From positions 3,192-67,191 of the forward strand of contig CAYHDB010000002.1 of assembly GCA_964355335.1 (NCBI GenBank): a stretch of DNA of 64,000 nucleotides, read 5' to 3'. The stretch is from an uncultured Candidatus Saccharibacteria bacterium. GTDB taxonomy: Bacteria; Patescibacteriota; Minisyncoccia; Phycocordibacterales; SIBU01. The number at the start of each line of letters is the position of its first letter. Positions within the stretch are counted from its first letter, which is position 1. The notes beneath the pieces were generated by a model. That model saw nothing but the letters and a program-made list of their open reading frames with translations. It was not told the DNA's origin and ran no database searches. Positions 788 through 63,425 of the stretch are shown in pieces. Position numbers and translations under genes: made by a program.

Positions 788-1885
788 CTAGCGGTTCATC
801 GGCATTACCAAATACGTAAAGTTCCTATCCCCTACCCCTCTTATCACCACAGGTCTTCCTTGTCCGGCAAAAGACAGGGATACACTGTCTGTGGTGATAG
901 ATTGCAGACAGTCAGCGATATAGCGGTAATTGAAATTAGCTTCCACACTTTCGCCGGTAAGAGCGGCATCTAGCAATGAGCTGTTTTCTCCAAGGTTGTT
1001 GTTTTTAGTAGTCAGCTCAAACTTTTTTTCTTTAGGGTTGATTGCAATACCAACCTGGTTAAACGTATCAGAAAAAATATTGGCTACTTTGAGCGAACGC
1101 ACCAAATCTTCCTTCAAAACAACCGCTTCGGTCTTGAACTCCTTAGGAATAATTTGTCTGTAGTCTGGGAAAGTGCCGTCCACCACTCTGGAGGTGAGGT
1201 ATGTACCGCCGGAGACAAACGCTATCTGATTTTTGTTAAGTCTCACTTCTACCAAACCCGAAACCCCCTCGAGTATTCGAATAATCTCCGGAACATTTTT
1301 GAACGGAATAAGAACTTTATCAAAATCCAAGGTTTTCATTTTGACTTTCTGCTCGGCTAGACGAAAAGAATCTGTCGCCGCAAACACCGCATAACCATCC
1401 TCTGGATACACATAAACGCTCGCTAGCTCCGCTTTTATACTTGAAACGGAGGAACTGTACCAGACCGCTTTTAAACCTCTCACAAAGTCTTCTGCGTTAA
1501 TCTCAAAGTGCTTTTCCTTGGATATCTCCGGGATAGTTGGAAAATCTTCTACAGGCAAACACTTAATTGAAGTTTTACTCCTTGTGGTGGTTACTGAAAG
1601 CAAATTCTCACTTCCACTCAACTTCACACTCTTCTCTCCTGTAAGGCTTGAAATAAAAGATGAAAGGGTGCCTGCGGGGACAGCAAGAACACCCTCCTCC
1701 TCGACTTTCGCCGGCATAAAACTTTCAAATCCCAAGTCGAGGTTTGTGGCTCGGATAGTGACGCCATTTTTCTTAACATCTAAAAGCACACAAGACAGTA
1801 CAGGTAAGTTTAGATTCCTCCCAGCAATTTTCTCAGCCTGTGAAAGAATCTTTTGTAATTTGTCTTGTACACATTCTGTTTTCAT
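788..1885 (-). CDS. dnaN: DNA polymerase III beta sliding clamp
   Basis: 365 aa, typical DnaN length and N-terminal MK..LxxxLxxV.. pattern. Directly downstream of dnaA. Confidence 0.9.
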   Translation of the reverse strand: MKTECVQDKLQKILSQAEKIAGRNLNLPVLSCVLLDVKKNGVTIRATNLDLGFESFMPAKVEEEGVLAVPAGTLSSFISSLTGEKSVKLSGSENLLSVTTTRSKTSIKCLPVEDFPTIPEISKEKHFEINAEDFVRGLKAVWYSSSVSSIKAELASVYVYPEDGYAVFAATDSFRLAEQKVKMKTLDFDKVLIPFKNVPEIIRILEGVSGLVEVRLNKNQIAFVSGGTYLTSRVVDGTFPDYRQIIPKEFKTEAVVLKEDLVRSLKVANIFSDTFNQVGIAINPKEKKFELTTKNNNLGENSSLLDAALTGESVEANFNYRYIADCLQSITTDSVSLSFAGQGRPVVIRGVGDRNFTYLVMPMNR

Positions 1886-2090
1886 ATACTTTATATAAAT
1901 ATATTACTACTATTAACTATGGGGATAACCTGTTTAGCTTATTTATTTATAAATACCAACGTATTTTAAAGAGAAGAATTGCTCGAAGGTCGGACAGTTT
2001 GTGGGGTAATTGTGTGGATAAGAATTTGGTCTGTATTTATCCCCAGTACGAACAGAGGTTTTCCACACAAAATGCACAGGTTGTTAAAAA
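1886..2090. promoter_or_regulatory. oriC: Probable oriC: AT-rich dnaA-dnaN intergenic region with four DnaA-box-like 9-mers
   Basis: tatggggataacc (~1921-1933, TTATCCCCA rc), tgtggataa (~2015-2023, perfect TTATCCACA rc), ttatcccca (~2036-2044), ttttccaca (~2062-2070). AT-rich spacers. Classic position between dnaA and dnaN. Confidence 0.6.
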
Positions 2091-3434
2091 TCAGAGAGTA
2101 GCTCGTATCTGATCCAGTTCTTGCTCGAGGCTAGGATTTGTCTTCAGCTCCTCTTTTATCTTCTCACAAGAGTGAATCACGGTAGTGTGGTCTCTCCCCC
2201 CAAGTTTCTGCCCTATCAAAGGATAAGAAACACCAAAGTCTTGTCTGAGTAGATACATTACGAGTTGTCTGGGTCGCACCACTTCCTTTCTCCTTGTCTT
2301 CTCGTAAATGTCAGCCTCCTCTATGTTGAAGAAATTGGAGACGGCCTTTGTGATTTCTTTTACAGAGACCGCCTTTTTAGGTTTGGCACTGTTTCTGATA
2401 AGATTTTTCACTTCAGTAATACCAAGCTCCTTCCCTTTTAGTTGAGACTGGCAGATTAAAACATTGAGCATCCCTTCTAGTTCACGAATGTTCCCCTCTA
2501 TTGTAGAAGCCAAGTGCTCCAAAACATCGGGAGCGAACGAAATAAGGCTTTGTTTGGCCTTTGTTTTAAGGATAGCAAGCCTCGATTCCCTATCAGGTGT
2601 AGGAATATCGATAATCATCCCAGCAGAAAAGCGGGATTTCAAACGGTCCTCCAATCCAGGGATAAAATTCGGGTGTTTGTCCGATGAAAAAACAATTTGT
2701 TTGTTTTCCTCGTGGAGACAATTGAAGAGATGGAACAATTCTTCCTGAGTCTTCTCTTTGTTTGAAAGGAATTGAATATCGTCCATTATCAAAATATCGT
2801 ATTTGCGATATTTATCTTTAAAGGCGTTCACTTTGTTTGCCTGAACCGAGTTCACATAATCTATCGCAAACTTTTCGGAGGTAACGTAATAAACTTTTTT
2901 ACCAACACCTTGATTTTTTATATGATTGCCGACGGCCTGTATCAGGTGAGTCTTTCCGTGGCCGGTGTTTCCGTATATAAAAAGAGGATTGTAGGCTTGG
3001 CCGGGTTTTTTCACCACCGCTTGGGCTGCCGCGTGCGCCAATTCGTTGAAAGGACCTACGACGAATGACTCAAAGGTGTATTTGGGGTTTAAATTGTTCT
3101 CCTTGTCTATGTAGAAGTCAGCAAGAGGCAACTCCGCCGTCGGCCCTGTATGGCTTTTTTGTACGTCTCCCTCTTTTCTTTTCCCATCATCTTTTGAGAT
3201 TTGGTACTCTACTGACCTTATGTTTTCTGACAGGTTTCTCAGTGATTTGAGAATAGACTTGTGGTATTTATTGAAAAGCCAATCCTTCGCAAAAGCATTT
3301 GGAACCGATACGAAGACAACCCCATCCTCTTGTTTTAGGATGCGAGTATCTTTAAACCAGGTGTTGAAGTTGGCTCTCGATACTGCGAGTTCTATTTCCA
3401 CCAGCACGTTGCTCCAGAGTTGTTCGTTTTCCAT
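2091..3434 (-). CDS. dnaA: Chromosomal replication initiator DnaA
   Basis: 447 aa. AAA+ Walker A GNTGHGKTHL, C-terminal DnaA-box-binding helix-turn-helix (..LIGQKLGGRDHTTVIHSCEKI..). Confidence 0.95.
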   Translation of the reverse strand: MENEQLWSNVLVEIELAVSRANFNTWFKDTRILKQEDGVVFVSVPNAFAKDWLFNKYHKSILKSLRNLSENIRSVEYQISKDDGKRKEGDVQKSHTGPTAELPLADFYIDKENNLNPKYTFESFVVGPFNELAHAAAQAVVKKPGQAYNPLFIYGNTGHGKTHLIQAVGNHIKNQGVGKKVYYVTSEKFAIDYVNSVQANKVNAFKDKYRKYDILIMDDIQFLSNKEKTQEELFHLFNCLHEENKQIVFSSDKHPNFIPGLEDRLKSRFSAGMIIDIPTPDRESRLAILKTKAKQSLISFAPDVLEHLASTIEGNIRELEGMLNVLICQSQLKGKELGITEVKNLIRNSAKPKKAVSVKEITKAVSNFFNIEEADIYEKTRRKEVVRPRQLVMYLLRQDFGVSYPLIGQKLGGRDHTTVIHSCEKIKEELKTNPSLEQELDQIRATL

Positions 3435-3514
3435 AAATATTTTAAGTGTATCCCATTATATACTCCTTTGATTACCTGTGAGCTTGCGGAGAACGGTTAA
3501 ATATGTTTATAATG

Positions 3515-3523
3515 TGTGGATAG
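3515..3523. promoter_or_regulatory. DnaA-box-like 9-mer (tgtggatag) upstream of dnaA
   Basis: 8/9 match to TTATCCACA (rc), ~80 nt upstream of the dnaA start. Likely autoregulatory or a second origin lobe. Confidence 0.35.
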
Positions 3524-3530
3524 AGTGTGA

Positions 3531-3620
3531 ACAACTGAATTACACATTACCTGTAACTGAATAACTGAATGACAAGGCCAGGTTTTGTCCCAAAAGTTAT
3601 TCTGTCATTCAGTTGTTTGT
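3531..3620. repeat. ACTGAAT-heptad palindromic element (same architecture as the TACGAA elements, different heptad)
   Basis: Left arm aactgaat/aactgaat/aactgaatga, core ggccaggttttgtcccaaaag, right arm tcattcagttg. A second copy is at 30890-31033. Confidence 0.7.
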
Positions 3621-3641
3621 TATAAGTCATAAGTTTCTTAC

Positions 3642-3776
3642 ATGTCATTCACATACAAACCTAAAAAGAAGAAAAGAGCTAGAACCCACGGTTTTTTGGC
3701 TAGACAAAGAAAACATGGAGGACGAAAGGTCCTTGTTGCCAGGCGCCGTAAAGGACGCAAGAAGTTGGCCGTCTAA
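3642..3776 (+). CDS. rpmH: 50S ribosomal protein L34 (44 aa). Not in the supplied ORF track; found by manual translation.
   Basis: atg tca ttc aca tac aaa cct .. translates to [44 protein letters not shown]. Canonical L34 core (RTHGF..R..GR.VL.RRR.KGR..L) and canonical position before rnpA. Confidence 0.85.
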
Positions 3777-3782
3777 TCTCGC

Positions 3783-3887
3783 TATACGAACATACGAAAG
3801 GGTACAGATATACGAACATATACGAAAAACTTCTTGATCCCTGTTCGTATAATTTCGTATATTTCAGTGACCTTAATTTTCGTATTA
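3783..3887. repeat. TACGAA-heptad palindromic element, copy 2, between rpmH and rnpA. The right arm ends 2 nt before the rnpA ATG.
   Basis: atacgaacatacgaaagggtacagatatacgaacatatacgaaaaa | core cttcttgatccctg | ttcgtataatttcgtatatttc..ttttcgtatt. Confidence 0.85.
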
Positions 3888-3889
3888 CT

Positions 3890-4231
3890 ATGATTCCCTC
3901 CTCTCGAAAGGTAGACAAAACTCTCTTTAAAACCCTGGTCTCTAAGGGTAAATGGGTAAACTCCGACCATTTTAATGGTCGTGTTTTGCTGTTAGGTGGT
4001 AATTATAAATCCAAAATATCAGTAGTCGTGCCAAAGAAGCTCGAAAAGAGCGCTGTAAAACGTAATGTATTAAAACGCCGTTTGTATTCAGTGGTCAGAA
4101 ATTGTCTTGGTCAGATGGTGACAGGCTCGGTTTGTGCGCTATTTGTAAAGAAGGGTTTCAGCACCAAGGAGCTTACCCTCTTAAAAAAGGAGGTCTCGGA
4201 TTTTATGGTAAAAGCGAAGCTGGTTTCCTAG
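3890..4231 (+). CDS. rnpA: Ribonuclease P protein component
   Basis: 113 aa, basic. Motif ..KSAVKRNVLKRRLYSVVRN.. follows the RnpA RNR-like motif. Classic rpmH-rnpA-yidC order. Confidence 0.8.
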   Translation: MIPSSRKVDKTLFKTLVSKGKWVNSDHFNGRVLLLGGNYKSKISVVVPKKLEKSAVKRNVLKRRLYSVVRNCLGQMVTGSVCALFVKKGFSTKELTLLKKEVSDFMVKAKLVS

Positions 4232-4288
4232 GCAATTACCGCACATTTTCTTGTTGAACGACACGCAAAAGTAAGCTATAGTGTCGTC

Positions 4289-5002
4289 ATGATTAGTTCA
4301 GCATTTAACGCTGTCATTTATAACCCTCTCTATAACGGGCTTATTTTTTTGATGGATATCGTGCCGTGGGCGGACGCAGGTGTGTCTGTGATAATCTTCA
4401 CTTTTTTGGTTAAATTGCTCTTGTTCCCTCTTTCCCAGAAGGCTGTACGAACACAATTACGAATGAAGGCGCACGAGGCTGATATGGCGGAGATAAAGGA
4501 ACGTCACAAGAACGATAAGGAGGCCCACGCCAGAGCAATGATGGCATTTTATAAGGAGAAAAATATCAATCCTTTTTCAAGTATTTTTTTGGCGTTCATT
4601 CAGATTCCTATTATTTTAGCCCTATATTATATTTTCTATAGCGGTGGTTTGCCTGTCATAGAAACTAAAATTCTGTATTCTTTTGTCGGTACACCGGAAG
4701 TCTCAATGTTGTTTCTTGGGTTGATCGATATAACGAAAGGAAGCTTGATTTTTGCCATACTCGTAGCCGTCAGTCAGTATTTTCAAGTGAAACTCTCCAT
4801 GCCGGAGATGAAGCCTGCTGTCGCAGGGGGCACATTCAAGGACGATTTTGCCAGAACCCTAAATCTCCAGATGAGATATTTTCTTCCTGTACTTGTTGGT
4901 GTTATTGCGTACAATATTGCCGGAGCAGTTTCCCTTTACTGGATTACGAGTAACCTCTTTGCCATCGGCCAGGAGATTTATGTCCGCAAGACATTTATGT
5001 AA
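4289..5002 (+). CDS. yidC: Membrane protein insertase YidC (short Oxa1-type)
   Basis: 237 aa, five predicted TM segments, conserved YidC core. Follows rnpA. Confidence 0.85.
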   Translation: MISSAFNAVIYNPLYNGLIFLMDIVPWADAGVSVIIFTFLVKLLLFPLSQKAVRTQLRMKAHEADMAEIKERHKNDKEAHARAMMAFYKEKNINPFSSIFLAFIQIPIILALYYIFYSGGLPVIETKILYSFVGTPEVSMLFLGLIDITKGSLIFAILVAVSQYFQVKLSMPEMKPAVAGGTFKDDFARTLNLQMRYFLPVLVGVIAYNIAGAVSLYWITSNLFAIGQEIYVRKTFM

Positions 5003-5011
5003 TTAATATTT

Positions 5012-5482
5012 ATGACCCTAGACCACAATAAAACAAAAGATGTGATCCAAGAGATGCTCAAAAGTATGGGTATTGGTTTTGATACTGTAGAGATAATAAG
5101 TAACCCAGATTCACAGCACACCCGTTTTGCGATAAGAACACCTGAGCCTTCCCTGCTTATTGGGACCAAAGGAGAAAATCTTGGCGCTCTTAATTATCTT
5201 ATTAAAAAAATTGTTACTAAGGCCCTCGCACCCGATACGGAAGTTAAGTTCTTCATCGATGTGAACGACTACCATGAGAGAGCCTTGGAGTCCGTTAAGG
5301 CGAAAGCAAAGGTTATGAGCGAAAGGGCCCGTTCCTTTAAGGTGGATATCGAGATGGAACCTATGACATCTTACGAGAGAATGCTTGTGCATTCGTGCCT
5401 CGAAGGGGTCTCTGACGTCAAAACAGAATCTGTCGGCGAGGGGCCTCTTAGACGTGTTGTTATTAAGTACCTTGCCTCATAA
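5012..5482 (+). CDS. jag: Jag/KhpB-type RNA-binding protein (KH + R3H)
   Basis: 156 aa. C-terminal R3H-like ..YERMLVHSCLEG.. Position after yidC. Confidence 0.75.
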   Translation: MTLDHNKTKDVIQEMLKSMGIGFDTVEIISNPDSQHTRFAIRTPEPSLLIGTKGENLGALNYLIKKIVTKALAPDTEVKFFIDVNDYHERALESVKAKAKVMSERARSFKVDIEMEPMTSYERMLVHSCLEGVSDVKTESVGEGPLRRVVIKYLAS

Positions 5483-5587
5483 ATACGAAAATACGAAAGG
5501 TACAGATATACGAACATATACGAAAAAGCTTCTTGATTCCTGTTCGTATTATTTCGTATATTTCAGCGACCCCTTTTTCGTATTAAG
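5483..5587. repeat. TACGAA-heptad palindromic element, copy 3. It overlaps the stop codons of the two convergent genes jag and the 5583..6830 ORF.
   Basis: aaatacgaaaatacgaaaggtacagatatacgaacatatacgaaaaa | gcttcttgattcctg | ttcgtattatttcgtatatttc..ttttcgtatta. Core nearly identical to copy 2. Confidence 0.85.
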
Positions 5588-9016: not shown

Positions 9017-9019
9017 GTT

Positions 9020-9137
9020 AGATATATTTTAACACAAATAGTATCGATACCAATATACTAATTGTACTAATGATACGAATGGGACCCCGGCTTTGATTAG
9101 TATAATTAGTATTCATTTGTATATTAGCATCGATACC
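9020..9137. repeat. TACTAAT/ATTAGTA-heptad palindromic element (third heptad family, same architecture)
   Basis: agtatcgatacc..atactaattgtactaatgatacgaat | gggaccccggctttg | attagtataattagtattcatttgtatattagcatcgatacc. Outer ends tatcgatacc / catcgatacc are also inverted. Confidence 0.7.
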
Positions 9138-10461: not shown

Positions 10462-10589
10462 AAGTTCCTCCTTTATTAAAGGTCGGAGTCCTCGGAGATA
10501 CGTCGGCGAAGGTGGCACATTCCGATGTGACGGAGGATTTAAATCCCTCCCCCTCGCAGACTCAGGTACTCCCTTTAGGAAAGGGAGAA

Positions 10590-12437
10590 TTAAGACGGGG
10601 TTTGTGCAGTAGGTTGAGTCTCTTTTTCTCCCTGTTCTTCCAATTCCTGTTTGGCTTGTTTTATCGCCAGAAGTTGTGATGGGTCTGATGTGATAATCTG
10701 GTCTTCGGTATATGAAGCGATGACTTTTATGGCAACGTGCTTCATTCCAACGAAGAATATTCCTTCTCCCACATCGCACTCAAGAAGTAGATATTTTTCT
10801 TCGTCGGTGAGATTGAAAGTTTTTTGGACACGTTCAATAGACGATGGGGATTGTTTCAGAAGCATCTGTATCGAGGAATTTGTAATAATCGGTAAACCGT
10901 ATGGAGATTTAAGAAAGTCGTCCACGTCCTGAGTGATTGTCGCGAGGCCGAGATAGTATTTGCGACCTCTCTTTGCTAGCCCAAGCAGGAAAGAAGCCGT
11001 ATCCTCGGATTTCATCATCCACCATGCTTCATCGATGACCAGTAGGCGCTTGCGAAGATTCTTCCTGATAGCGTTCCAGATATAGTGAGTGACGATGTAC
11101 ATTGCCACAGGTTTCAACTCGTCCTCCATATCTCGGAGTGAGAACACGATAAACTTTGCTTCAATATCGATGTTTGAAGGTTTATTTATAAATCCCGCCC
11201 ACGTACCTCTGGTGTATTTGGAAAGCCTTTGAACAAGTGAGTCCCCTCCCTCCATCCCCGCAAGCACCAATTCAAAGTCTGAAAGTAGTGGTGGTTCGAC
11301 ATTTCTAAAGTCCGAATCCGGAGTAATGTCTTTAAGTGCGTATGTTTCGCTGATGGCGCGGTCAATAATCGCATCCTCTTCTGGCGTTAAGCCACCAAGC
11401 ATAATTCTGAACAAACCCACAAGATTTATGATGTTTGAGCGCAGAACATCCGAAGAAGCCTCGTCTTCTCTGGGTATAGGAAGGTCGAAAGGATTTATGT
11501 GGTGAGTCGAGTTTAGCGAGATTGTGAAATATTTTCCGCCGGTCGCTTCTGCCATATATTCATATTCCCTTTCCGGGTCGATGACGATAACTTCGGTGTC
11601 AAACATCAGCGTTCGTAGGATTTCAAGTTTTGTATTGTAGGATTTTCCTGAGCCGGATTTCGCAAAAGTTATTGAGTTGTAGTTTTCCAAAGAAAATCTG
11701 TCGAAGAGGACCAAGGAAGAATTGTGGCGGTTTATACCGTAGAGTATTCCCTTGTCTGATGTAAGGTCGAATGAAGTAAACGGGAACAAAGAAGAAAGGG
11801 GTGAAGAATTGAGCTTTGAATGAACCATAAGCTCATCTTGAGCAATAGGCATTACACTTCTGAAGCCTTGTTCTTGCTGGAAAAGGGCGGGTTTTAGATA
11901 AATCAGCTTTGATTCTAGAATGGATTTGATTTCCGATTCTATCTTGTCCAGCTCCTCGTCACTCTTGCCGTATATTGAGATATATAGACCGACATCAAAC
12001 AGTTTCTCCTGCGCCTGCATCAGATTGTCTCGCAGTCTTTCAAGGTCTTGATAAGCTGTATCAAGCATAGGGTCTCGGACCATTCCCTTTTTCGCACGCT
12101 CGTTTATTTGGCTTTGGACCTCTGCCACTTTTTTCTGAAATTGACGTAAAACAATAGCCGTATCGATAGGATGAATGAATATTGAAATATCAAATACCTT
12201 GTCTAGGTTGATAATTGGTGAAAACCACCCTTCCGCAAGGAAGCGAGGGTAAGAGATGACAAAGAATGTTCTTACGATGGAGTCACCAAGGTTAAGAGCC
12301 CGAGGAGTCACCTTGAGTGCTGAAGGGGCGATGATATCTTTCAACTCCAAAACCCCGGATTCGTAAATCTCTTGGGGTAGGATGCTCGCAATGTCAGGAG
12401 CTTTGTCTTTTCTTTTTAAAAAATCAAATATTCCCAT
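10590..12437 (-). CDS. VirB4/TrbE/PrgJ-family conjugative-transfer ATPase, C-terminal two-thirds (ATPase domain)
   Basis: Walker A FAKSGSGKSY. Walker B LLVIDEAWWMM (DEAW is typical of VirB4). True start taken as MGIFDFLKRK; the residues upstream in the listed ORF are translated from the repeat element. Confidence 0.7.
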   Translation of the reverse strand: MGIFDFLKRKDKAPDIASILPQEIYESGVLELKDIIAPSALKVTPRALNLGDSIVRTFFVISYPRFLAEGWFSPIINLDKVFDISIFIHPIDTAIVLRQFQKKVAEVQSQINERAKKGMVRDPMLDTAYQDLERLRDNLMQAQEKLFDVGLYISIYGKSDEELDKIESEIKSILESKLIYLKPALFQQEQGFRSVMPIAQDELMVHSKLNSSPLSSLFPFTSFDLTSDKGILYGINRHNSSLVLFDRFSLENYNSITFAKSGSGKSYNTKLEILRTLMFDTEVIVIDPEREYEYMAEATGGKYFTISLNSTHHINPFDLPIPREDEASSDVLRSNIINLVGLFRIMLGGLTPEEDAIIDRAISETYALKDITPDSDFRNVEPPLLSDFELVLAGMEGGDSLVQRLSKYTRGTWAGFINKPSNIDIEAKFIVFSLRDMEDELKPVAMYIVTHYIWNAIRKNLRKRLLVIDEAWWMMKSEDTASFLLGLAKRGRKYYLGLATITQDVDDFLKSPYGLPIITNSSIQMLLKQSPSSIERVQKTFNLTDEEKYLLLECDVGEGIFFVGMKHVAIKVIASYTEDQIITSDPSQLLAIKQAKQELEEQGEKETQPTAQTPS

Positions 12438-12440
12438 AGT

Positions 12441-12554
12441 TATTAAAATATACGAACATACGAATTGGTGCGGATATACGAAATAATACGAAAACCGCAG
12501 TGTATTTCGCAAATTTTTCGTATATGTTCGTGTTTTTGTACCATTATTTTCGTA
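12441..12554. repeat. TACGAA-heptad palindromic element, copy 4, lying between the two VirB4 ORFs
   Basis: atatacgaacatacgaattggtgcggatatacgaaataatacgaaaa | ccgcagtgtatttcgcaaa | tttttcgtatatgttcgtgtttttgtaccattattttcgtattag. Confidence 0.85.
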
Positions 12555-13202
12555 TTAGTTGATTTGGACAGGTTTATCCATCTCCCCTGGATTGAATATC
12601 TTATAAAGTAACTCAACCACTTCTTCCGTACCAAGCTGGGCAGCGCGGATGCCACACCGTACCAATCCCTGCTCTACCACAGACAGACGTTGCAGAAGTT
12701 GGCTTCGGTTTTCCTCGAAAACATCCTGCTTCGTTTCCCTTTTCTGTTCCGCCTCTTCTCTGGTCAAAAACCTTCCTGCCCTATCCACCAGCCCCCCTTT
12801 GCCTTGAAGTGGCGCGGGCGCGTATGGGACGACAACAAAAAATGTTTTTGTCATTATGTTTGCGCTCTCGGTAAAACTTTTTATGAAGCCGATGTACTCC
12901 CTTGTCTGGACTTTCATCAAATCGGTCGATTGTTCTTTGTAACGTTCTTCCAGTAGAGCTATATATGGTCGGATATCGAGTTTTCTCGATTCTATAAAAA
13001 GTTGAACTGAAAAATCCAGTGAGTTTAGAAAGTTTTGGAATTGAGAAATGATCGCGTTTTGGTTTTCCTGAGATTTCAAAGCAAAGTTCAGCGATGATGT
13101 CATAAGAAGCGCACGGAAAGAGCCGTCCTTGAGGACGATGATACCATCGCGTACCTCTTTGATGGGTACAAACTCTTGGGTGGCCCTGGGTGTTGTTGCC
13201 AT
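12555..13202 (-). CDS. VirB4-family N-terminal domain, encoded as a separate ORF
   Basis: ..IKEVRDGIIVLKDGSFRALLMTSSLNFALKSQENQNAIISQFQNFLNSLDFSVQLFIESRKLD.. matches the TrbE/VirB4 N-terminus (..KDGSF....f.g.d..s....E.......lNn.l..L..gw.i.ve.qR). The combined 215+~613 aa is roughly VirB4 length (~800 aa). Confidence 0.6.
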   Translation of the reverse strand: MATTPRATQEFVPIKEVRDGIIVLKDGSFRALLMTSSLNFALKSQENQNAIISQFQNFLNSLDFSVQLFIESRKLDIRPYIALLEERYKEQSTDLMKVQTREYIGFIKSFTESANIMTKTFFVVVPYAPAPLQGKGGLVDRAGRFLTREEAEQKRETKQDVFEENRSQLLQRLSVVEQGLVRCGIRAAQLGTEEVVELLYKIFNPGEMDKPVQIN

Positions 13203-13300
13203 ACTAATTATACGAACATACGAATTAACGAAAATACGAAATTATACGAAAACCATAGTGGTGCCACAAAAGTTTTCGTATTTGTTCGTGTTTTGCTTCA
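13203..13300. repeat. TACGAA-heptad palindromic element, copy 5
   Basis: attatacgaacatacgaattaacgaaaatacgaaattatacgaaaa | ccatagtggtgccacaaaag | ttttcgtatttgttcgtgtttt. Confidence 0.85.
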
Positions 13301-13660
13301 TTATATCTTTTTTACATTATCAATGCGAACAATACGAATTGGTTTGATAATTTTTTCTCTAAAATTAACCAGATACCCTAAACGCATCTGGGTTTCCTGT
13401 AAGTAATGTTGGACTTGGCGGTAGTCTTCAGGAGTCAGTGCACGTTTCGCTTTCAATTCAAGGATAATTTTCTCTTCAATCAAAAAATCAAGTATATTTC
13501 CACTATTAGATATTGCCAATTCTCTTTTGTATGCAATTTTTCTATTTTTTAGCTTTTCTTCAATTATGTCCGCGTATTGCTTCTCTCTTCCGTACAATCC
13601 CAGTTCTTTATGAGCCTCAAGGAAAATTCCCACTAAATCGTAAGACAAGTTAGGGTATAT
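13301..13660 (-). CDS. GxxExxY-family protein (PD-(D/E)XK-like), small cassette-like gene inside the T4SS-like operon
   Basis: ..LVGIFLEAHKELGLYGREKQYADIIEEKL..GNILDFLIEEKIILELKAKRALTPEDYRQVQHYLQETQMRLGYLVNF.. follows the GxxExxY family pattern (lG.G..E..Y...L...L.....D....iilElK.......h..Q...YL.....gLLiNF). Start uncertain: an ATG inside the repeat, or an internal TTG/GTG. Confidence 0.6.
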   Translation of the reverse strand: MYPNLSYDLVGIFLEAHKELGLYGREKQYADIIEEKLKNRKIAYKRELAISNSGNILDFLIEEKIILELKAKRALTPEDYRQVQHYLQETQMRLGYLVNFREKIIKPIRIVRIDNVKKI

Positions 13661-13669
13661 TACTTTCGA

Positions 13670-13722
13670 GGACACACTTTTCGTATTTGTTCGTATATCC
13701 GCATCCATTCGTATTTTCGTAT
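13670..13722. repeat. TACGAA-heptad element, short copy 6 (ttttcgtatttgttcgtatatccgcatccattcgtattttcgtatc)
   Basis: TTCGTAT units flanking a short core. Lies between the GxxExxY gene and the prgI-like gene. Confidence 0.6.
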
Positions 13723-14166
13723 CTACCTCTTCCCTCCCATCGTCTCGCTCGCTCCAGGACTAATGTTTTCATTGATATCAAGTGACCACGTCAGATCTTT
13801 CAGCTTGCTATCGGAAAGCCTCGGCACGTAGAGAAGTGGGGCGACAATATCTTCGGCTTTTTTCGGAACGATTTTTTTGTCCTGTTTTTTCCAGATGTAG
13901 AGTTTGCTTGAAATCATAAACTTAAAGGCTGATTCAAGCACTCCTATGAATGGCCTGTTGTTCACCTTGTAGAATGCCAACGAAAGACCGAAGGCAACCA
14001 CGGGAAGGATGAGTAGTATGGCCAGGATAAAGGAGATCGGCCCCACATAGGTATAGATGATGAAGGATAGACCTCCAGCACCGGCGACATAGACAAATTG
14101 CTTGATCGTGAGTGATCCGAAAATCTTGTCTTCTACCTCGATAAATTGTGGGACTTGAAATTGCAT
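13723..14166 (-). CDS. PrgI-family protein (VirB3-like small membrane component of Gram-positive-type T4SS)
   Basis: MQFQVPQFIEVEDKIFGSLTIKQFVYVAGAGGLSFIIY.. matches the PrgI N-terminal consensus (..vP.di..edkifg.Lt.rQl.yl..g) followed by a TM hairpin. Lies in the same operon as the VirB4 ATPase, on its upstream side. Confidence 0.65.
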   Translation of the reverse strand: MQFQVPQFIEVEDKIFGSLTIKQFVYVAGAGGLSFIIYTYVGPISFILAILLILPVVAFGLSLAFYKVNNRPFIGVLESAFKFMISSKLYIWKKQDKKIVPKKAEDIVAPLLYVPRLSDSKLKDLTWSLDINENISPGASETMGGKR

Positions 14167-14290
14167 AAATATACGAAAATACGAATTTTACGAAACTACG
14201 AAATAATACGAACACCGCGCTGGTGACACAAAAGTTTTCGTATATGTTCGTATGTCTGTTTCATTTCGTATGTTCGTATGGTTAGTGTAG
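14167..14290. repeat. TACGAA-heptad palindromic element, copy 7
   Basis: aaatatacgaaaatacgaattttacgaaactacgaaataatacgaaca | ccgcgctggtgacacaaaag | ttttcgtatatgttcgtatgtctgtttcatttcgtatgttcgtatgg. Confidence 0.85.
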
Positions 14291-14297
14291 TGCGTGG

Positions 14298-16060
14298 CTA
14301 CATAGGCTCTCGGTATGGATCACTATTCTGTCCTACCCCAGGCTTGTTCGAAGTCACAACACTGGAAAGTTTCTGGTCTAGAATGTTTTTAGCTGATACT
14401 CCTTGCACAGGTATGGCGGTGCTGATTGGTTTTTGAATAGCTGGTTGAGCGACAGGAGGCGTTGTGATTTTGGGAGACATAATTGGAGCGGAAGGCAAAG
14501 GCTTTTCCGACATCACAGGAGGTGGTACTGAGCGGAGAGAATCAAGTTTTTGTCCAAGAGCTCCTCTTTGGATGACAGGTTCAGGTGGTTTAGGCAATGT
14601 TCCAGGTTGCCACGGAGTGTCCTGTGCTTGTACTCCTGGCTTTACGGCATCTGAGGAGGAAGGTTCTGAGGATGAAGAGGTTGTCGTCTGAAATTCTCCC
14701 TTGTTAAAGGTCGAAGTCCTCGAAGAAACGTCATCGAGAGTACCGCTTTCGGAAGCGGGGAGGGATTTAAATCCTCCGTCCTCGCCGACTTGGACACCTC
14801 CTTTAGTAAAGGTCGGAGTCCTCGGAGATACGTCGGCGAAGGAATCTGAAACAGGGATTCCCGTTTTTGGTTTCATTGGAACAGGAAGAGACGGACCTTG
14901 TGCCGGAGTGGTCTGGGCACTAGCTGGGGTAGCCTTGTTGTCTCGAAACCAGAGTGGTTTTGGATTTTCTATGTCACGGAGAATTGTAGCTCGGTCCGGC
15001 ACTTCCCCGCTGTCAGTACCGCCAAGGTTTGGGGCTGGTTTTGTAGAAGCCACTTGCGCAACCGGTTTTATAGGTATCGGCGATGAAGGTGTGGGAGGCA
15101 CGGTCTCTTCATGAATTTGCTTCAAGGCCTCTCTGATTTTTAGAAAAACTTCTGTGTTTATCTCTTGTGCAACCAACTTTACTTTCTCTTCAGAAAGACC
15201 GAGACGTCTGGAAAGATGAGGCAGGAATTGTCCCGGATGTGTAAAGCCAAGTATCACCATTCCTGTCTCCGCACCAAGCTCCCCTATCTTGTCCACATGA
15301 AGAGCGTATTTCCTGCCGATGTCCACCACCTTTTTGGCGGAGTCCACAGAACGTAGGGCCTCTTTTAGTTTTAGTGGCAGTTTTTCATACTGTTGGACCA
15401 TTTCTTTTTCAGAAACTCTACCATCAAGCATACGCAGAAGAGACTCAATCGGTTTCTCTGACATTTGTGTGTGGCTGGTCTCCATTATCGGTGGTTTCAT
15501 TCCCCCAAATCTTGAGTCAGTCTCTCCTGTCGGCAGGTTGCTTGGAGGTGGAGCGTATGTAGATGAAAATGTTGCACCTCGTACTACGGGTGGAGGAACA
15601 GTCGTTTGACCCCACGACGAAGATGGTGGCGGAGGAGCCATTCTTTTCGGAGGCAGTCTTGATGGCAAAGGCTGTGACAAGACAGAATCAACAACTTCAA
15701 GCCCTTCCACTTTCGGTGGAGCGGTCTGTACGGAAAGTTCTATCGGGATTTTGATTCCAAGTGCCGGAAGAAGTTTGGAAAAAATCTTCTCACTGATTAA
15801 GGAAACAATCTGAGGTATTTTTTCTCTGTTGTCTTCGTCAATCTTTTCGGTTAACCCCGCTTCAAAATCCTTCGGTTGACGTTCCTTCGTAATTATCTGC
15901 CGTACCAACTCGCACACCTCACCGATCTCCCGCATGGTCAATCCGACAACGTCCGCAATTCCCTCTATGGTGAATACCAGATTGTCATTCTCAACAACGG
16001 ATATTGCAGATGGAGGCAGTTTGCTGGTAGCAACAGTTAACTTATCGAATTGTTCGGTGT
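14298..16060 (-). CDS. Pro-rich hypothetical protein with internal peptide repeats (SPRTPTFTKG / SRTSTFNKG)
   Basis: Likely start MSYTEQFDKLTV. Structured N-terminal domain followed by a Pro/Ser/Thr-rich region. DNA 14700-14850 shares a repeat with the DUF559 flank (10470-10590). Confidence 0.5.
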
Positions 16061-16105
16061 ACGACATAATAATTATTACAAAGTAGTGTTTGCACAATGA
16101 ATAAC

Positions 16106-23347: not shown

Positions 23348-24409
23348 ATGAAGTCGGACTCCTTAATATTTTTTTTGGGATTAATTGCAGGTTTTGTGCT
23401 GACTGTCTCGGTTTTTTCCTCAGCAGTTTTCGCCGATTCACCTGTATTTCACAGACAGCTTGGTCTTGGTTCGCGTGGAGTAGATGTTTTGAATTTGCAA
23501 AAGATGCTAAATAGCGACCCTGACACGCAAATTGCCTTTTCTGGTCCAGGGTCGCCCGGTCATGAAACAAGTACCTATGGTTCTCTTACTCGTCAGGCCG
23601 TTATAAAGTTTCAAAAGAAATACTCATCCGATATTCTGGCACTCGGACAAGCCCCCACAGGTTCGGTCGGTCCGAAGACATTAAACAAGATTAATTCCTT
23701 TTCAAGAAATAACGCCAATTTTTCTGTAGCGCCATCAGCACCAGTTGCCCCAAGCGCTCCGACGAAGAGTACAGAAGATGTTTACACAGGAAGATCTCAA
23801 GCTTCTCCGACCTCGAGCTCTGAAACCACACCGGATACCACAAAAATTAATCCAAACCTTGTTAATCTGGATAGATTTATAAATGATGTACAGACTGTTG
23901 GGAAAAAGAAGGGTTTTTCTAGTGATCAGTTGGCAGAGGTTGTCGGCGGTATTAAAACAACTGTTGCTACGACTACGGATTTTCGTAAGGAGTTTGCTAA
24001 AGTTAGGGCACAGGCCAAACGTGTAACGAAGCTTTCTGATAGCTCTGTGTACTCCTTGTCGCCGAGCAATCTTTTCAAGGATATTCTGGTTTCCTTGGGT
24101 GTATTTCCAAAAATTGCTGAGGCGCAAATAGGAGGAGATCCGTTTGGCGGTGCGATTTATTTTATATTCTACTGCGTCTGCACAGGCAATTGGCTTGTGG
24201 GGTTGCAACCTTTGCCTCCGTATTATCCGGTGCTACTTACATATTATATGGGGACTCAGGAATATGCCAATTACAATACTCCCTTTACTTTTGAGCTATT
24301 GGGTTTTTACAGAAGTGGATCCGGGCAGTGTGAGGAATATGCCGGTACATCCTGCGTCAGTGTGCCAAATGAAGGAGAAATTACAGGCACGCTAGGCTCT
24401 TCTATCTAA
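23348..24409 (+). CDS. Secreted protein with peptidoglycan-binding (PG_binding_1-like) domain and Cys-rich C-terminus
   Basis: Signal peptide. ..LGLGSRGVDVLNLQKMLN..YGSLTRQAVIKFQKKY.. matches the PG-binding-1 pattern. Confidence 0.5.
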   Translation: MKSDSLIFFLGLIAGFVLTVSVFSSAVFADSPVFHRQLGLGSRGVDVLNLQKMLNSDPDTQIAFSGPGSPGHETSTYGSLTRQAVIKFQKKYSSDILALGQAPTGSVGPKTLNKINSFSRNNANFSVAPSAPVAPSAPTKSTEDVYTGRSQASPTSSSETTPDTTKINPNLVNLDRFINDVQTVGKKKGFSSDQLAEVVGGIKTTVATTTDFRKEFAKVRAQAKRVTKLSDSSVYSLSPSNLFKDILVSLGVFPKIAEAQIGGDPFGGAIYFIFYCVCTGNWLVGLQPLPPYYPVLLTYYMGTQEYANYNTPFTFELLGFYRSGSGQCEEYAGTSCVSVPNEGEITGTLGSSI

Positions 24410-25172
24410 GAGTTGCGAGAGTTTTCCACTCCTCGAGGGACAAGTTCTCTGCACGTGTATTTTTTTCAATACCGGATTTTCCCATTATTTTTTCGATTTC
24501 CGGAAGTATTTCCTTCAGGTTTGCGGAAAGTTTTTTTCGTTTGTGAGCGAAACCTGTTTTAACAATTGTGAAAAAAACTTCCTCGGTAAACCCATCAAAG
24601 AAGGACTTCGAAATATTTTCGATAGCAAGAATTGCCGAGTCGACTTTTGGAGGTGGCGCAAAACTGCCGGCTTTCACTATGCCGATTATTTTCGGAGAGC
24701 CGTATGCTTTTACAGAAATGGAGAGAATACTTTCTTTCTTGTCGCGGGCAATTATTCTTTCAGCTACCTCCTTCTGAACAAGGATTACCATTCTTGATGG
24801 CTGTTGCTCCGCTTCTAAAAACTTTCTGATAAAAGCACCCGTAATATAATACGGTATGTTCGCTATTACTTTATACTTTGAAAATTGAAAATTGGAAATT
24901 GAAAATTCCAAAATATCATTTTCAATTAAAGCTAATTGTCCGGAGGCAATCTCTCTTGAAAATCTGTTATGCAGATGCGGTATAAGTCGCCGGTCCTTTT
25001 CAATCGCAATTACTTTTGCACCAGCTTTTAATAGAGCCTCCGTAAGCACTCCTTCTCCAGGCCCTGCCTCAAGTACCGTTTCTCCAGGATGGATATCTCC
25101 CGCTTTTACTATGTCAGATATGGCTTTTCCGGAACGGAGAAAGTTTTGCCCGAGTGATCTTTTTTGTATCAT
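24402..25172 (-). CDS. rsmA: 16S rRNA (adenine1518/1519-N6)-dimethyltransferase
   Basis: SLGQNFL motif. SAM-binding VLEAGPGEGVLT. 256 aa. Confidence 0.9.
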   Translation of the reverse strand: MIQKRSLGQNFLRSGKAISDIVKAGDIHPGETVLEAGPGEGVLTEALLKAGAKVIAIEKDRRLIPHLHNRFSREIASGQLALIENDILEFSISNFQFSKYKVIANIPYYITGAFIRKFLEAEQQPSRMVILVQKEVAERIIARDKKESILSISVKAYGSPKIIGIVKAGSFAPPPKVDSAILAIENISKSFFDGFTEEVFFTIVKTGFAHKRKKLSANLKEILPEIEKIMGKSGIEKNTRAENLSLEEWKTLATLR

Positions 25173-29338: not shown

Positions 29339-30892
29339 TTATTGTTCCTGTAAAGTTTTCGGTCTGTACTGAATCGCTTCCGCGATATGGTGTTCGTTTA
29401 TATCTTCCATCCCGTATAAGTCAGCAATGGTCCGCGCGAGTTTGATGACCCTGTGATATGCCCGACCTGATAACCCCAGATGCTCGGCCGAAGCGTTCAA
29501 GACTTTGGTGACCTTGTCATCAAGTTTTACAAGTTTTTCAATGTCGCGGGCATTCATATGACTGTTGCAATCAATATTTCTTTTGGCCTTTTTGAAACGG
29601 TTTATTTGCACATCTCTTGCCCTGATCACCCTCTCTCTAATTTTGTCCGTAGTCTCTGCGCTTCCGGCATCGGAAAGTTTCTTATGCGATATTCTGGGTA
29701 CCTCAATCCAAATATCAATACGGTCGATAATCGGACCGGATATTTTATCTCGATAACGTTTCAATGCTATCGGTGCGCAGATGCATTCCTTTTCTTTCGA
29801 GCCTAGGTTTCCGCACGGACAAGGATTCATTGCAGCTATAAGTGTAAATCCAGCAGGAAACTCTGCTGTACCTTTTGCTCGTGATACAGAGACAGTCCTT
29901 TCTTCCAGGGGTTGCCTAAGTGCGTCAATGGCTCGACGGTCAAACTCTGCAAATTCATCCAGGAAAAGTACACCGTGATGGGCCAATGTTACTTCTCCGG
30001 GTTTTGGTGTGGCACCTCCCCCGACAAGTGAAACATATGATGCTGTGTGGTGAGGAGATCGTATTGGCGGTTCCGATACCATCGCTCCTTTTAGAATACC
30101 CGCCACAGAATGGATGGCAGTAATATCAAGTATTTTTTCAAAAGTTAATGGAGGGAGTATGTGGCAGAATGCTCGGGCTAGCATTGTCTTCCCTGTGCCC
30201 GGCGGTCCAAACATCGCGATGTTGTGACCTCCTGCGGCGGCAATTTCTAGGCCACGCTTAGCTGTTTCTTGTCCCTTGATGTCGGAAAAATCAACATCAT
30301 ATTCCCCCATTAATTTTTCAATGGGTGTTTTTTCTGTAATCGATAACCTAGATTCGATAAGTTCCGAGTTATTTAATGATTCAAGGTGGTCAATTGTTTG
30401 TTTCAAACTTTTCACCCCGTATACCTCTATGCCGTCGATAAGTGACGCCTCCGGCGCGTTTTCTTCCGGCACATAGATTTGGGTGAAGCCTTTATCCTTT
30501 GCGATTCTTGCAAGTGGTAATACCCCGTTTATCTTGCGAAGTTTGCCATCAAGCGAAAGTTCACCAAGAAAAATTTTGTGCTCTGCATCAAAGTCTGTTT
30601 CTTCCGAGGCTTTCAGATACGCAAGAGCGATGGCCAAATCGAAAATCGGACCTTCTTTTTTTACATCAGCCGGAGCAAGTGAAATGGTTATCTTTTGGTT
30701 TTTCTGTTTTGGCGATTTGAAACCGGAGTTTTTTATTGCCGCCGCTACCCTGTCGCGGGATTCCTCTACCCCCTTGTCTGGTAGACCTACTATCGAAAAA
30801 GCATGAAGACCTTTTGAGAGGTCCACTTCAACTGTGATAGGTTGTGCCGAAAGAAGAGTTGTTTGAGCGCTATAGACTTTGGCGAAGCTCAT
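29339..30892 (-). CDS. comM: YifB/ComM-family Mg-chelatase-like AAA+ ATPase
   Basis: Lon-like N-domain. Walker A GPPGTGKT. Sensor motifs. 517 aa, typical of ComM. Confidence 0.85.
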   Translation of the reverse strand: MSFAKVYSAQTTLLSAQPITVEVDLSKGLHAFSIVGLPDKGVEESRDRVAAAIKNSGFKSPKQKNQKITISLAPADVKKEGPIFDLAIALAYLKASEETDFDAEHKIFLGELSLDGKLRKINGVLPLARIAKDKGFTQIYVPEENAPEASLIDGIEVYGVKSLKQTIDHLESLNNSELIESRLSITEKTPIEKLMGEYDVDFSDIKGQETAKRGLEIAAAGGHNIAMFGPPGTGKTMLARAFCHILPPLTFEKILDITAIHSVAGILKGAMVSEPPIRSPHHTASYVSLVGGGATPKPGEVTLAHHGVLFLDEFAEFDRRAIDALRQPLEERTVSVSRAKGTAEFPAGFTLIAAMNPCPCGNLGSKEKECICAPIALKRYRDKISGPIIDRIDIWIEVPRISHKKLSDAGSAETTDKIRERVIRARDVQINRFKKAKRNIDCNSHMNARDIEKLVKLDDKVTKVLNASAEHLGLSGRAYHRVIKLARTIADLYGMEDINEHHIAEAIQYRPKTLQEQ

Positions 30893-31033
30893 GACTAAAT
30901 AACTAATAACTTATAACTGAATGACTGAATAACAAAGAAAATAACAGAAAGACTGACGCAATAACCGTGATTGACTAAATTTGTCGTTTCCTGTGTCATT
31001 CAGTAATGAGTAATTCAGTTATTAGTTATTCTG
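30890..31033. repeat. ACTGAAT-heptad palindromic element, copy 2
   Basis: aactaataacttataactgaatgactgaataacaaag | core aaataacagaaagactgacgcaataaccgtgattgactaaatttgtcgtttcctgt | gtcattcagtaatgagtaattcagttattagttattctgttag. Confidence 0.75.
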
Positions 31034-59950: not shown

Positions 59951-60003
59951 ATGTAATACGAATTACGAATAGGTACGAATATACGAATAATACGGAGAGT
60001 ATA
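59951..60003. repeat. Half-element: four tandem TACGAAT heptads ending at the clpP start codon, with no opposing arm
   Basis: atgtaatacgaattacgaataggtacgaatatacgaataatacgg. A perfect palindrome TAGACTTG-A-CAAGTCTA lies at 60015-60031. Confidence 0.7.
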
Positions 60004-60609: not shown

Positions 60610-60721
60610 TTTACTTTGTCACAGCCCGTCACTTCGGTGTCGGGCTTTTCTTTTTGTGGTTTTCCACTACAATTGATAAATCATTCTTACCTCTCCTCCT
60701 TTCGAAGGAGGAGAAAGAGAG

Positions 60722-61105
60722 GTGGTAACTGTGTTTGTAAACAATATCCAAAAGCAGAAGCTCAAGCGAAAACTTTTGCGGAACAACGCGACACCACAGG
60801 AAGTCGTATTGTGGTCGCGACTGCGCGACAGTCAGCTAGGGTTTAAGTTCAGGAGACAAGCTAGTATCGGTAATTTCATTGCGGATTTTTATTGTCCGAC
60901 AAGGAAGCTTGTTGTGGAGGTTGATGGTTCACAACACATAGATAGTGAATCGGATAAAGAACGAACAAAATTTCTAAATACGGCGGGTGTATACGTTTTA
61001 CGATTTTGGAATAATGAGGTTGATGGGAATTTGGATGGAGTGATTACGAAAATTATTACCACCCTCAATCCCTCCTTTGAAAGGAGGGAAGGGGAAAAGA
61101 CATGA
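60722..61105 (+). CDS. DUF559 domain protein (Vsr-like endonuclease fold), hairpin-bounded mini-element
   Basis: ..LRNNATPQEVVLWSRLR..FKFRRQASIGNFIADFYCPTRKLVVEVDGSQH... GTG start after a GAAGGAGGAG Shine-Dalgarno in the hairpin cctctcctcctttcgaaggaggagaaagagagg. The 3' end encodes ..TLNPSFERREGEK across the hairpin ccctcctttgaaaggaggg. Confidence 0.7.
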   Translation: MVTVFVNNIQKQKLKRKLLRNNATPQEVVLWSRLRDSQLGFKFRRQASIGNFIADFYCPTRKLVVEVDGSQHIDSESDKERTKFLNTAGVYVLRFWNNEVDGNLDGVITKIITTLNPSFERREGEKT

Positions 61106-63384: not shown

Positions 63385-63425
63385 ATGAATACAAATTACG
63401 AATCTGTACGAATATACGAATAAAA
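63385..63425. repeat. Half-element: three tandem TACGAAT heptads ending at the tig start codon
   Basis: atgaatacaaattacgaatctgtacgaatatacgaataaaaa. Confidence 0.65.

Follow-up and report, generated by a model that had tools for sequence, protein, structure and literature searches.

Two adjacent genes encode co-linear parts of VirB4

The window, that is, the whole 64,000-nt stretch of DNA analysed, carries on its minus strand two neighbouring open reading frames, hereafter N (12555-13202) and C (10590-12437), with a spacer between them (the N-C spacer). Upstream of N lie a small GxxExxY/PDDEXK_3 ORF contained in a TACNAA palindrome (13301-13708, minus strand; Pfam PF13366, E 2.7e-20) and the gene for the VirB3-like protein PrgI (13723-14166, minus strand; Pfam PF12666, E 4.8e-11). 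For the GxxExxY ORF, a GTG at 13675 may be the true start. The order PrgI-N-C is also present in L081, L083, L085 and L104 (these, together with L020 and L097, are genome loci of relatives; P0001 and P0204 are homologous proteins). The neighbours of this type IV secretion system (T4SS) in the window match the published set dnaA, dnaN, rnpA, ksgA and rpmH, and no relaxase was seen near it among the ORFs scanned, which make up part of those in the window.

The 215-aa product of N is a TrsD-like or 'TraC-like' protein, a stand-alone homologue of the VirB4 N-terminal domain. In the NCBIfam search it matched the N-termini of four VirB4 profiles, covering positions 2-116 of NF045971 (752 positions) and 4-171 of TIGR00929, and it also matched the TrsD/TraD family NF041427, with a score of 26 bits that lies below the curated cut-off of 200. 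Judged by these scores, N is related to the staphylococcal TrsD/TraD subfamily but is not a member of it. A local Pfam search of N returned no family even at E <= 10, and the precomputed label PF26593 ('TraC-like') is carried by all 120 homologues listed, including P0001 (96% identical). Because the NF041427 score is sub-threshold and the local Pfam search gave no match, the family assignment of N rests on the PF26593 labels of its homologues and on a published CONJScan-based survey. The PDB matches that Foldseek returned for an AF2 model of N (pLDDT 73) were exclusively TrwK/VirB4 chains (top 14, probability 0.98-1.0), and in P0204, a fused homologue of 797 aa, N corresponds to residues 1-214 (41% identity). 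The first-pass annotation had read this ORF as a VirB4 N-terminus, and sequence and predicted fold agree with it.

The product of C, 615 aa long (about 613 aa had been given), is the VirB4 ATPase core and begins with the conserved start MGIFDF. It passes the curated cut-off of NF045971, a CD1110-type VirB4 profile, with 364.8 bits against 325, and spans positions 181-733 of that profile; the N-terminal ~180 positions are absent from the same polypeptide. Both ATPase motifs that had been claimed for C can be read in the ORF, as AKSGSGKS (Walker A) and LLVIDEAWW (Walker B). Pfam assigned P-loop_TraG (E 2.4e-25) and AAA_10, and the PDB matches were 4ag5, a VirB4 C-terminal domain (E 3.8e-41), and TrwK (E 3.7e-6). 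When C was compared by tblastn with 80 relatives, the alignment began at query residue 1 in most loci. Residues 27-597 of C align with residues 225-796 of P0204, so that profiles, structure search and the alignment to the fused homologue all identify N and C as co-linear parts of VirB4. To judge from P0204, the position of the break is a linker with little conservation.

The spacer element belongs to a genome-wide palindromic repeat

A palindrome of TACGAA/TTCGTA words fills the whole of the N-C spacer (12438-12554, 117 nt; nhmmer E 6e-25), as the first-pass annotation had noticed; one of its arms is degenerate. In the window 60 and 49 occurrences of the two hexamers were counted, where about 15.5 would be expected on each strand; they form 12 clusters, all non-coding. 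The element, present in nine full and three partial copies, is made of two inverted arms with about five TACGAA words each, spaced 8 or 10 nt. Over the section of the window for which it was calculated (788-34845), the coding fraction is 0.93. Copies lie mostly by housekeeping genes (dnaN, rpmH/rnpA, jag, pcrA/ksgA, the RNase Y gene, clpP and tig). One of them occupies 3777-3889, between rpmH (3642-3776) and rnpA (3890-4231), and the element is therefore not specific to the T4SS operon; another fills the 100 nt (5483-5582) between the convergent stops of the jag/R3H gene (plus strand) and a 415-aa gene (minus strand).

The first-pass annotation had placed one element at every junction in this part of the operon, which is true in part. 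Besides the N-C spacer, a copy lies between the GxxExxY stop and the N start (13203-13300), with a partial inner left arm, a loop and a five-word right arm that ends in TATAAT 5 nt before the ATG and matches the orthologous L104 copy with 100% identity over ~50 nt. A further copy lies between the stop of the Pro-rich gene and the PrgI start (14167-14297); this junction holds a solo palindrome in L104, and a 23S_rRNA_IVP ORF instead in the contig of P0001, in L081 and in L083. Between the PrgI stop and GxxExxY there is a single arm of four words (13680-13722), 91% identical to the orthologous arm of L104. The junction between the Pro-rich gene and the 1195-aa gene, an 8-nt gap, has no TACGAA element, and the repeat at the C/DUF559 junction is of a different kind.

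The element shares with MITEs the terminal inverted repeats, small size, lack of coding capacity and many copies. The flanks of the copies show no consistent target-site duplication beyond a possible T or TA, and neither a transposase nor a RAYT was identified in the subset of window ORFs scanned. The repeat is a lineage-specific intergenic palindrome that occurs genome-wide.

Small ORFs are found within such palindromes in relatives as well. In L081, L083 and L104, too, the GxxExxY gene is flanked by a left arm of TACNAA words and a right arm of TTNGTA words. In a sample too small to establish a link between element and cargo protein, strong inverted repeats flanked 4 of 4 GxxExxY genes, 3 of 13 23S_rRNA_IVP genes (strong here being above the 99th percentile of controls) and 0 of 2 DUF559 genes. 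Related palindromes built of other words likewise hold small ORFs in their loop. We found no description of these elements in literature searches on CPR genomes that covered GxxExxY, 23S_rRNA_IVP and intergenic palindromic repeats.

A possible function for the element

The element may be under selection as an intercistronic element that sets the expression of the VirB4 core relative to that of TrsD, a reading that we hold tentatively and consider less probable than its opposite. It could act as a protein-binding TACNAA array, serve the downstream cistron as 5' leader or internal promoter, or form a hairpin that governs RNA processing or stability. L104, a metagenomic relative, has copies at the same four T4SS junctions; they are 86-91% identical to those of the window and share copy-specific variants, although the 4-fold degenerate sites of the flanking genes are merely 24-34% identical between the window and L104 (the C fragment, being out of frame, is excluded from this comparison). 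The columns TAC.AA and TT.GTA are invariant at the N-C junction across the window, L081, L083 and L020, and again in the TACNAA palindrome that the window, L097, L081 and L083 share at the junction at 9017-9137. Copies hold their junctions even in relatives with saturated 4-fold sites, so the element may be functional, and the palindromes of this clade look conserved beyond neutral expectation. At N, PrgI, rnpA, clpP and tig, a right arm comes to within 5-8 nt of the start ATG and no Shine-Dalgarno sequence is present there; upstream of clpP a TTGTCA-17-TATACT match is followed by a lone arm.

This conservation could, however, have been mimicked by homogenisation of the family or by repeated site-specific insertion, since word arrays align well whatever their origin, and 63 of the 80 relatives have no element at all at the N-C junction. 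A promoter inside the element was rejected, as sigma-70-like matches were not enriched in a consensus scan (7 against 10.2 expected). The copy between convergent stops has no downstream gene that would need a signal. Intrinsic-terminator matches were not enriched either (9 against 7.1 expected); with none of the nine inside an element, and with stems that are A/T-rich and contain internal loops, a terminator was also discarded. Rfam gave no match at E <= 1. Folded as RNA, the N-C copy reaches -22.3 kcal/mol on the sense strand, which is weak (z -1.85), and -32.4 kcal/mol on the antisense strand (z -3.85). Elements fold moderately better than shuffles, with no strand preference, and at the variable middle position the bases of the two arms are complementary in just 9 of the 38 word pairs; the data thus give no support to a duplex conserved in the RNA, and a conserved hairpin was rejected. 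Finally, a uniform absolute orientation, perhaps linked to replication, had been suggested by the first nhmmer profile, but in the leave-one-out test orientations were mixed, also relative to gene direction, which marks the signal as a training artefact. GC skew gave no usable origin signal.

Age and position of the split

The two ORFs had been described as lying in different frames. They share one, because the gap of 117 nt equals 39 codons: a lone TAA (12555-12557) separates the N and C frames, the 39 codons across the element are open, and the in-frame junction reads ...PVQIN*YENNGTKTRTYTKNLRNTLRFSYYFVYPHQFVCSYILITMGIFDF, with no further stop. Read-through of this TAA would join N and C into one VirB4 chain of 870 aa, in which the element would encode a linker of 39 residues. 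We consider this very unlikely. The gaps of the element-bearing relatives L081, L104 and L020 measure 152, 131 and 122 nt, none a multiple of three, and that of L083 contains in-frame stops, so the open frame is not conserved; a gap that is open by chance is expected in a few per cent of cases. TAA is, moreover, the most efficient bacterial stop codon.

Comparison with 80 related Paceibacteria genomes dates the split. The N stop and the C start lie at the same boundary in 80 of 80, and N is directly upstream of virB4 in every one. In 63 the gap is 30 nt or less, often a TAAnATG arrangement or an ATGA overlap, and TACGAA/TTCGTA hexamers are absent from 79 of the 80 gaps, L020 being the exception. 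The 120 closest homologues of N listed are all stand-alone proteins of 209-242 aa with a shared C-terminus, YKIFNPGxxxKPxQxx followed by the stop. Among the best 150 representatives of 50%-identity clusters of N, 149 are 102-443 aa long and a single one, P0204, has 797 aa; this fused protein adjoins PrgI and is near dnaA/dnaN. Unsplit genes, which the first-pass annotation had suggested looking for among relatives, are represented among these proteins by one rare homologue, and all 80 loci are split. Outside the clade, Geobacillus and Paenibacillus plasmids carry PrgI, an N-domain protein and a DUF87 ATPase in this order, with an overlap or an 18-nt gap. A 2025 survey (PMC12102498) describes TrsD as a remote homologue of the VirB4 N-terminus that adjoins virB4 across Patescibacteria, as do 1,664 of 2,272 Patescibacteria TrsD genes, and places the T4SS of these bacteria near dnaA, dnaN, rnpA, ksgA and rpmH.

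These results refute the proposal that the element was inserted into an intact, single-chain virB4 and broke it, to which we now give practically no credence. The position of the element exactly between the two pieces and the existence of the fused P0204 could suggest such an event, but the split lies at the same residue in relatives with no repeat, an outcome that the first-pass annotation had itself named as refuting, N belongs to a very large family of stand-alone proteins with one conserved C-terminus, the same split is found on Bacillota plasmids, and the TrsD + VirB4 arrangement is published. No near-identical genome with an empty N-C spacer was seen; close relatives (83-96% identity) carry an element there as well. 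Almost certainly wrong, too, is the idea of an assembly or sequencing artefact, or of N as a decaying pseudogene fragment, which has nothing beyond the unusual appearance of the locus in its favour and is refuted by the same boundary in independent assemblies and by the selection on N: in comparisons with L081 and L083, pN is 0.06-0.09 and pS about 0.85, values that point to purifying selection on both genes, and it is strong in the case of N, with pN of 0.08-0.10 against pS of 0.76-0.86.

Discussion

Taken together, our data make it highly probable that N and C are the ordinary two-gene VirB4 of a chromosomal, origin-proximal Patescibacteria T4SS, and that the split is ancestral and the repeat a later arrival. 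The TrsD-like protein of ~215 aa would supply the first part of the VirB4 N-terminal domain, and the ~615-aa protein the remainder of that domain and the ATPase, in the order PrgI(VirB3)-TrsD-VirB4. By homology to single-chain VirB4, the two may assemble into one VirB4-like unit. The split is ancestral to this entire Paceibacteria clade and is found on some Bacillota plasmids too, and in the ancestral state the cistrons would have been translationally coupled, with gaps of -4 to ~+30 nt. In the lineage of the window, a palindromic repeat would then have settled in this short gap and in many other spacers between genes, both genes staying intact under purifying selection. The C start is now probably initiated independently, on the A/U-rich stretch without a Shine-Dalgarno sequence that follows the element.

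A broader proposal, which we regard as rather unlikely, is that the TACNAA word-palindromes of Paceibacteria operons belong to a class of intercistronic elements that is under selection and has so far gone undescribed, with sibling palindromes made of other words in other lineages. They might be read through their phased hexamer words and not as an RNA duplex, persist at orthologous junctions past synonymous saturation, serve as leaders or as regulatory or processing sites, and be carriers or landing pads for small ORFs of nuclease-like or four-helix type (GxxExxY, 23S_rRNA_IVP, GIY-YIG); at the TrsD-VirB4 junction, an element-controlled restart may have replaced translational coupling.

The two-gene TrsD + VirB4 architecture is already known and published and, being the standard one, adds nothing to what is known of how mobile elements split genes. 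The annotation is corrected in two respects, the cause of the split, which is not the element, and the frame, which is the same for N and C. What the locus does illustrate is that, in these streamlined genomes, lineage-specific word-palindromes and small selfish ORFs have settled time and again in the tight, translationally coupled junctions of operons. Should the palindromes be functional, they would offer a way into the organisation of gene expression in organisms that have yet to be cultivated on their own.

The closest known system is the TrsD + VirB4 pair of Patescibacteria (MPF_FATA-like, pGO1 subclass; PMC12102498), which shares the ~200-aa N-domain protein directly upstream of VirB4, PrgI/VirB3 upstream, and the chromosomal position by dnaA, dnaN, rpmH, rnpA and ksgA. 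At the protein level there is no difference; here, however, a 117-nt palindrome sits in a normally tiny spacer, and GxxExxY and DUF559 small ORFs are interleaved in the operon. Single-chain VirB4 proteins (TrwK of R388, PDB 7O41/8RTB; NF045971; P0204) have the same domains in the same order, and the model of N superposes on the N-terminal region of TrwK, whereas in the window the first ~215 residues form a separate polypeptide. The Bacillota plasmids (Geobacillus pGspE55-1, Paenibacillus pSC2) share the gene order and the split, and their N proteins align with >90% of N at 26-29% identity, but these proteins are longer (318-332 aa), plasmid-borne and without an intergenic repeat.

As for the element, Correia/NEMIS repeats of Neisseria, ERIC and REPIN/BIME are imperfect palindromes of ~100-130 nt, present in many copies, lineage-specific, intergenic, also within operons, and able to form hairpins. 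The TACGAA element resembles them in size, copy number, lineage restriction, intergenic placement and hairpin potential. It differs in that its arms consist of ~5 phased hexamer words and not of a unique terminal inverted repeat or REP stem, in that a target-site duplication is not definable, and in the lack of a RAYT or transposase among the ORFs scanned. Intervening sequences of 23S rRNA genes carry 23S_rRNA_IVP ORFs, and the palindromes described here likewise hold a small ORF of the 23S_rRNA_IVP/GxxExxY kind between inverted arms; these cassettes, however, lie between protein-coding genes and not in rRNA.

Two adjacent genes encode co-linear pieces of a VirB4

The N-terminal VirB4 piece, a TrsD-like protein of 215 aa (12555-13202, minus strand), is followed after a 117-nt gap by the ATPase core of 615 aa (10590-12437, minus strand). 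The core carries both Walker A (AKSGSGKS) and Walker B (LLVIDEAWW), has Pfam matches to P-loop_TraG, AAA_10 and DUF87, and among solved structures matches TrwK and the VirB4 C-terminal domain (4ag5, E 3.8e-41); it scores above the curated threshold for CD1110-type VirB4, with coverage restricted to profile positions 181-733 of 752. A search of a local Pfam copy with the N-terminal protein gave no match, and in profile searches it matched four VirB4 profiles over their first 116-171 positions, as well as the stand-alone TrsD/TraD family. When its AlphaFold model (pLDDT 73) was compared with the PDB, the top 14 matches were all TrwK/VirB4 chains of the R388 machine (probability 0.98-1.0), and those beyond such chains were noise. 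Because of these profile and structure matches the two proteins are co-linear VirB4 pieces, and the first-pass annotation, which is partly confirmed overall, was correct in this identification. Compared with L081 and L083, two relatives that also have an element at this junction, both genes show pN of 0.06-0.10 and pS of 0.74-0.86; at the sequence level, both appear to be alive.

The split is shared by relatives without the repeat

The 120 best database homologues of the N-terminal protein are all 209-242 aa long, carry Pfam PF26593 "TraC-like" and end in a common, highly conserved C-terminus, YKIFNPGxxxKPxQxx-stop; among the best 150 representatives at 50% clustering, 149 have 102-443 aa and one has 797 aa. 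In each of 80 genomes compared, which represent species of Paceibacteria, Taylorbacteria and Zambryskibacteria at 59-68% identity, the first gene stops and the second starts at the same boundary. The gap is at most 30 nt in 63 of them, typically TAA-n-ATG or an ATGA overlap, the classical arrangement for translational coupling, and TACGAA hexamers occur in just one gap (L020). It had been proposed that the element inserted into an intact virB4 and split it, a view that repeat-free relatives split at the same boundary would contradict; the 79 gaps without a hexamer are exactly that. An element-caused split is refuted by these relatives, by the stand-alone N-domain family and by Bacillota plasmids.

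An unsplit gene was found in none of the 80 loci; the database holds one rare fused homologue, P0204 (797 aa), from a Patescibacteria MAG, where PrgI adjoins and dnaA/dnaN are near. The N-terminal protein aligns to its residues 1-214 and residues 27-597 of the core to 225-796, so that the pieces are co-linear with a full-length VirB4. The break lies within a linker that is short and poorly conserved.

The two ORFs had been placed in different frames; they share one, as the 117-nt gap equals 39 codons, all open within the element (12438-12554), and a single TAA (12555-12557) stands between the genes. Read-through of this TAA would yield an 870-aa fusion. The open frame looks accidental, because in element-bearing relatives the gap is not a multiple of three or contains in-frame stops.

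TACGAA palindromes are a genome-wide intergenic repeat

The window contains 60 TACGAA and 49 TTCGTA words, against ~15.5 expected per strand, grouped in 12 clusters that are all non-coding. Nine are full palindromes (~100-135 nt), the other three single arms; an arm consists of about five words, set 8 or 10 nt apart, with a degenerate middle word. Since copies adjoin housekeeping genes (dnaN, rpmH|rnpA, jag, pcrA|ksgA, a DksA-like gene, the RNase Y gene, clpP and tig), and one fills exactly the 100 nt separating two convergent stops, the element is a genome-wide intergenic repeat rather than a T4SS signal. The claim that every junction in this part of the operon has one held only in part: GxxExxY/PrgI has a single arm, and two other operon junctions have no TACGAA element.

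The single arms at 59957-59987 and 63397-63420 lie 6 nt ahead of the start codons of clpP and tig. In gene orientation the clpP arm is itself preceded by TTGTCA-17 nt-TATACT, which suggests that this arm may be a 5' leader. A canonical Shine-Dalgarno sequence, AAGGAGG, precedes the DUF559 gene (10501-10520); none is found in genes after TACGAA elements or at the relatives' coupled junctions. Further intergenic palindromes consist of TACTAA/TACCAA words (9041-9136; the orthologous copy in relative L097 is canonical TACGAA) and AACTNA words (30891-31030), and at 60690-61092 CCTCCTTTCGAAGGAGG arms stand either side of ~360 nt.

An element profile run against 924 kb from 87 loci of relatives found it in L020 only, plus weakly in L081, L082 and L083, and a metagenome scan gave further copies, mainly from two sample sets. 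The TrsD|VirB4 spacer is expanded in 17 of the 80 relatives, by lineage-specific palindromes of quite different words (L002, L036, L069, L071, L075, L077), by a 23S_rRNA_IVP-like ORF (L001, L014, L070, L074) or by a GIY-YIG ORF (L011). The spacer is a recurrent insertion site, colonised independently in other lineages.

Is the element under selection?

A selected function would explain why, in the metagenomic relative L104, elements at the same four junctions remain 86-91% identical to those of the window while 4-fold sites of adjacent genes are only 24-34% identical. The two sets share copy-specific variants, including ~50 identical bases directly upstream of the N-terminal gene's start. At the 9017-9137 junction, where four genomes have a TACNAA palindrome, the TAC.AA / TT.GTA columns are invariant and the fourth base is free, and the TrsD|VirB4 junction behaves in the same way. 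In only 9 of 38 word pairs do the two arms carry complementary fourth bases, so the constraint, if real, is on words and not on a duplex. However, same-word arrays align well whatever their origin, and homogenisation or site-specific re-insertion could therefore mimic conservation. In addition, matches to promoter and terminator consensus sequences were not enriched, Rfam gave no match, element orientation relative to transcription is mixed, the copy between the VirB4 genes has a weak sense-strand fold, and 63 of the 80 relatives need no element there. On balance we consider a real function doubtful.

Small ORFs and repeats elsewhere in the operon

In all four genomes that were compared at this locus, the GxxExxY (PDDEXK_3) gene has a TACNAA arm on its left and a TTNGTA arm on its right (window 13203-13722; L081 7495-8003; L083 3418-3910; L104 1443-1947). 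Scored against the 99th percentile of random controls for genes in the fetched loci, flanking inverted repeats exceeded it for GxxExxY (4/4), 23S_rRNA_IVP-like (3/13) and GIY-YIG (1/1) genes and for neither of two DUF559 genes. The Pro-rich|PrgI junction (14167-14297) has a solo TACGAA palindrome in the window and L104, and a 23S_rRNA_IVP ORF in the 96%-, 86%- and 83%-identical relatives (the contig of P0001, a homologue of the N-terminal protein; L081 6644-7060; L083 2515-2985), flanked by arms of TTAGGC-type words in L081 and TGGAAA-type words in L083. The Pro-rich protein (14298-16097, 599 aa) has a ~97-aa insertion (14525-14813) relative to its 495-aa L081 orthologue; the repeat inside it recurs as the DUF559 gene's non-coding leader (10467-10584; 73-98% identity), and the insertion looks like repeat DNA inserted in frame into the coding region.

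Comparison with known systems

The window is origin-proximal, with dnaN (788-1885), dnaA (2091-3434), rpmH (3642-3776), rnpA (3890-4231) and jag/R3H within 788-5482 and ksgA at 24402-25172; a TACGAA element also sits at rpmH|rnpA, a junction that is normally tight. This matches the published chromosomal context of Patescibacteria T4SS, usually near dnaA, dnaN, rnpA, ksgA and rpmH (PMC12102498, Microb Genom 2025). In that study, 1,664 of 2,272 TrsD homologues were associated with VirB4, and TrsD appears there among the essential genes of Southlakia epibionticum. The split TrsD + VirB4 architecture is already known, and the Bacillota plasmids Geobacillus pGspE55-1 and Paenibacillus pSC2 have the same order of PrgI, N-domain protein and DUF87 ATPase, without the repeat.
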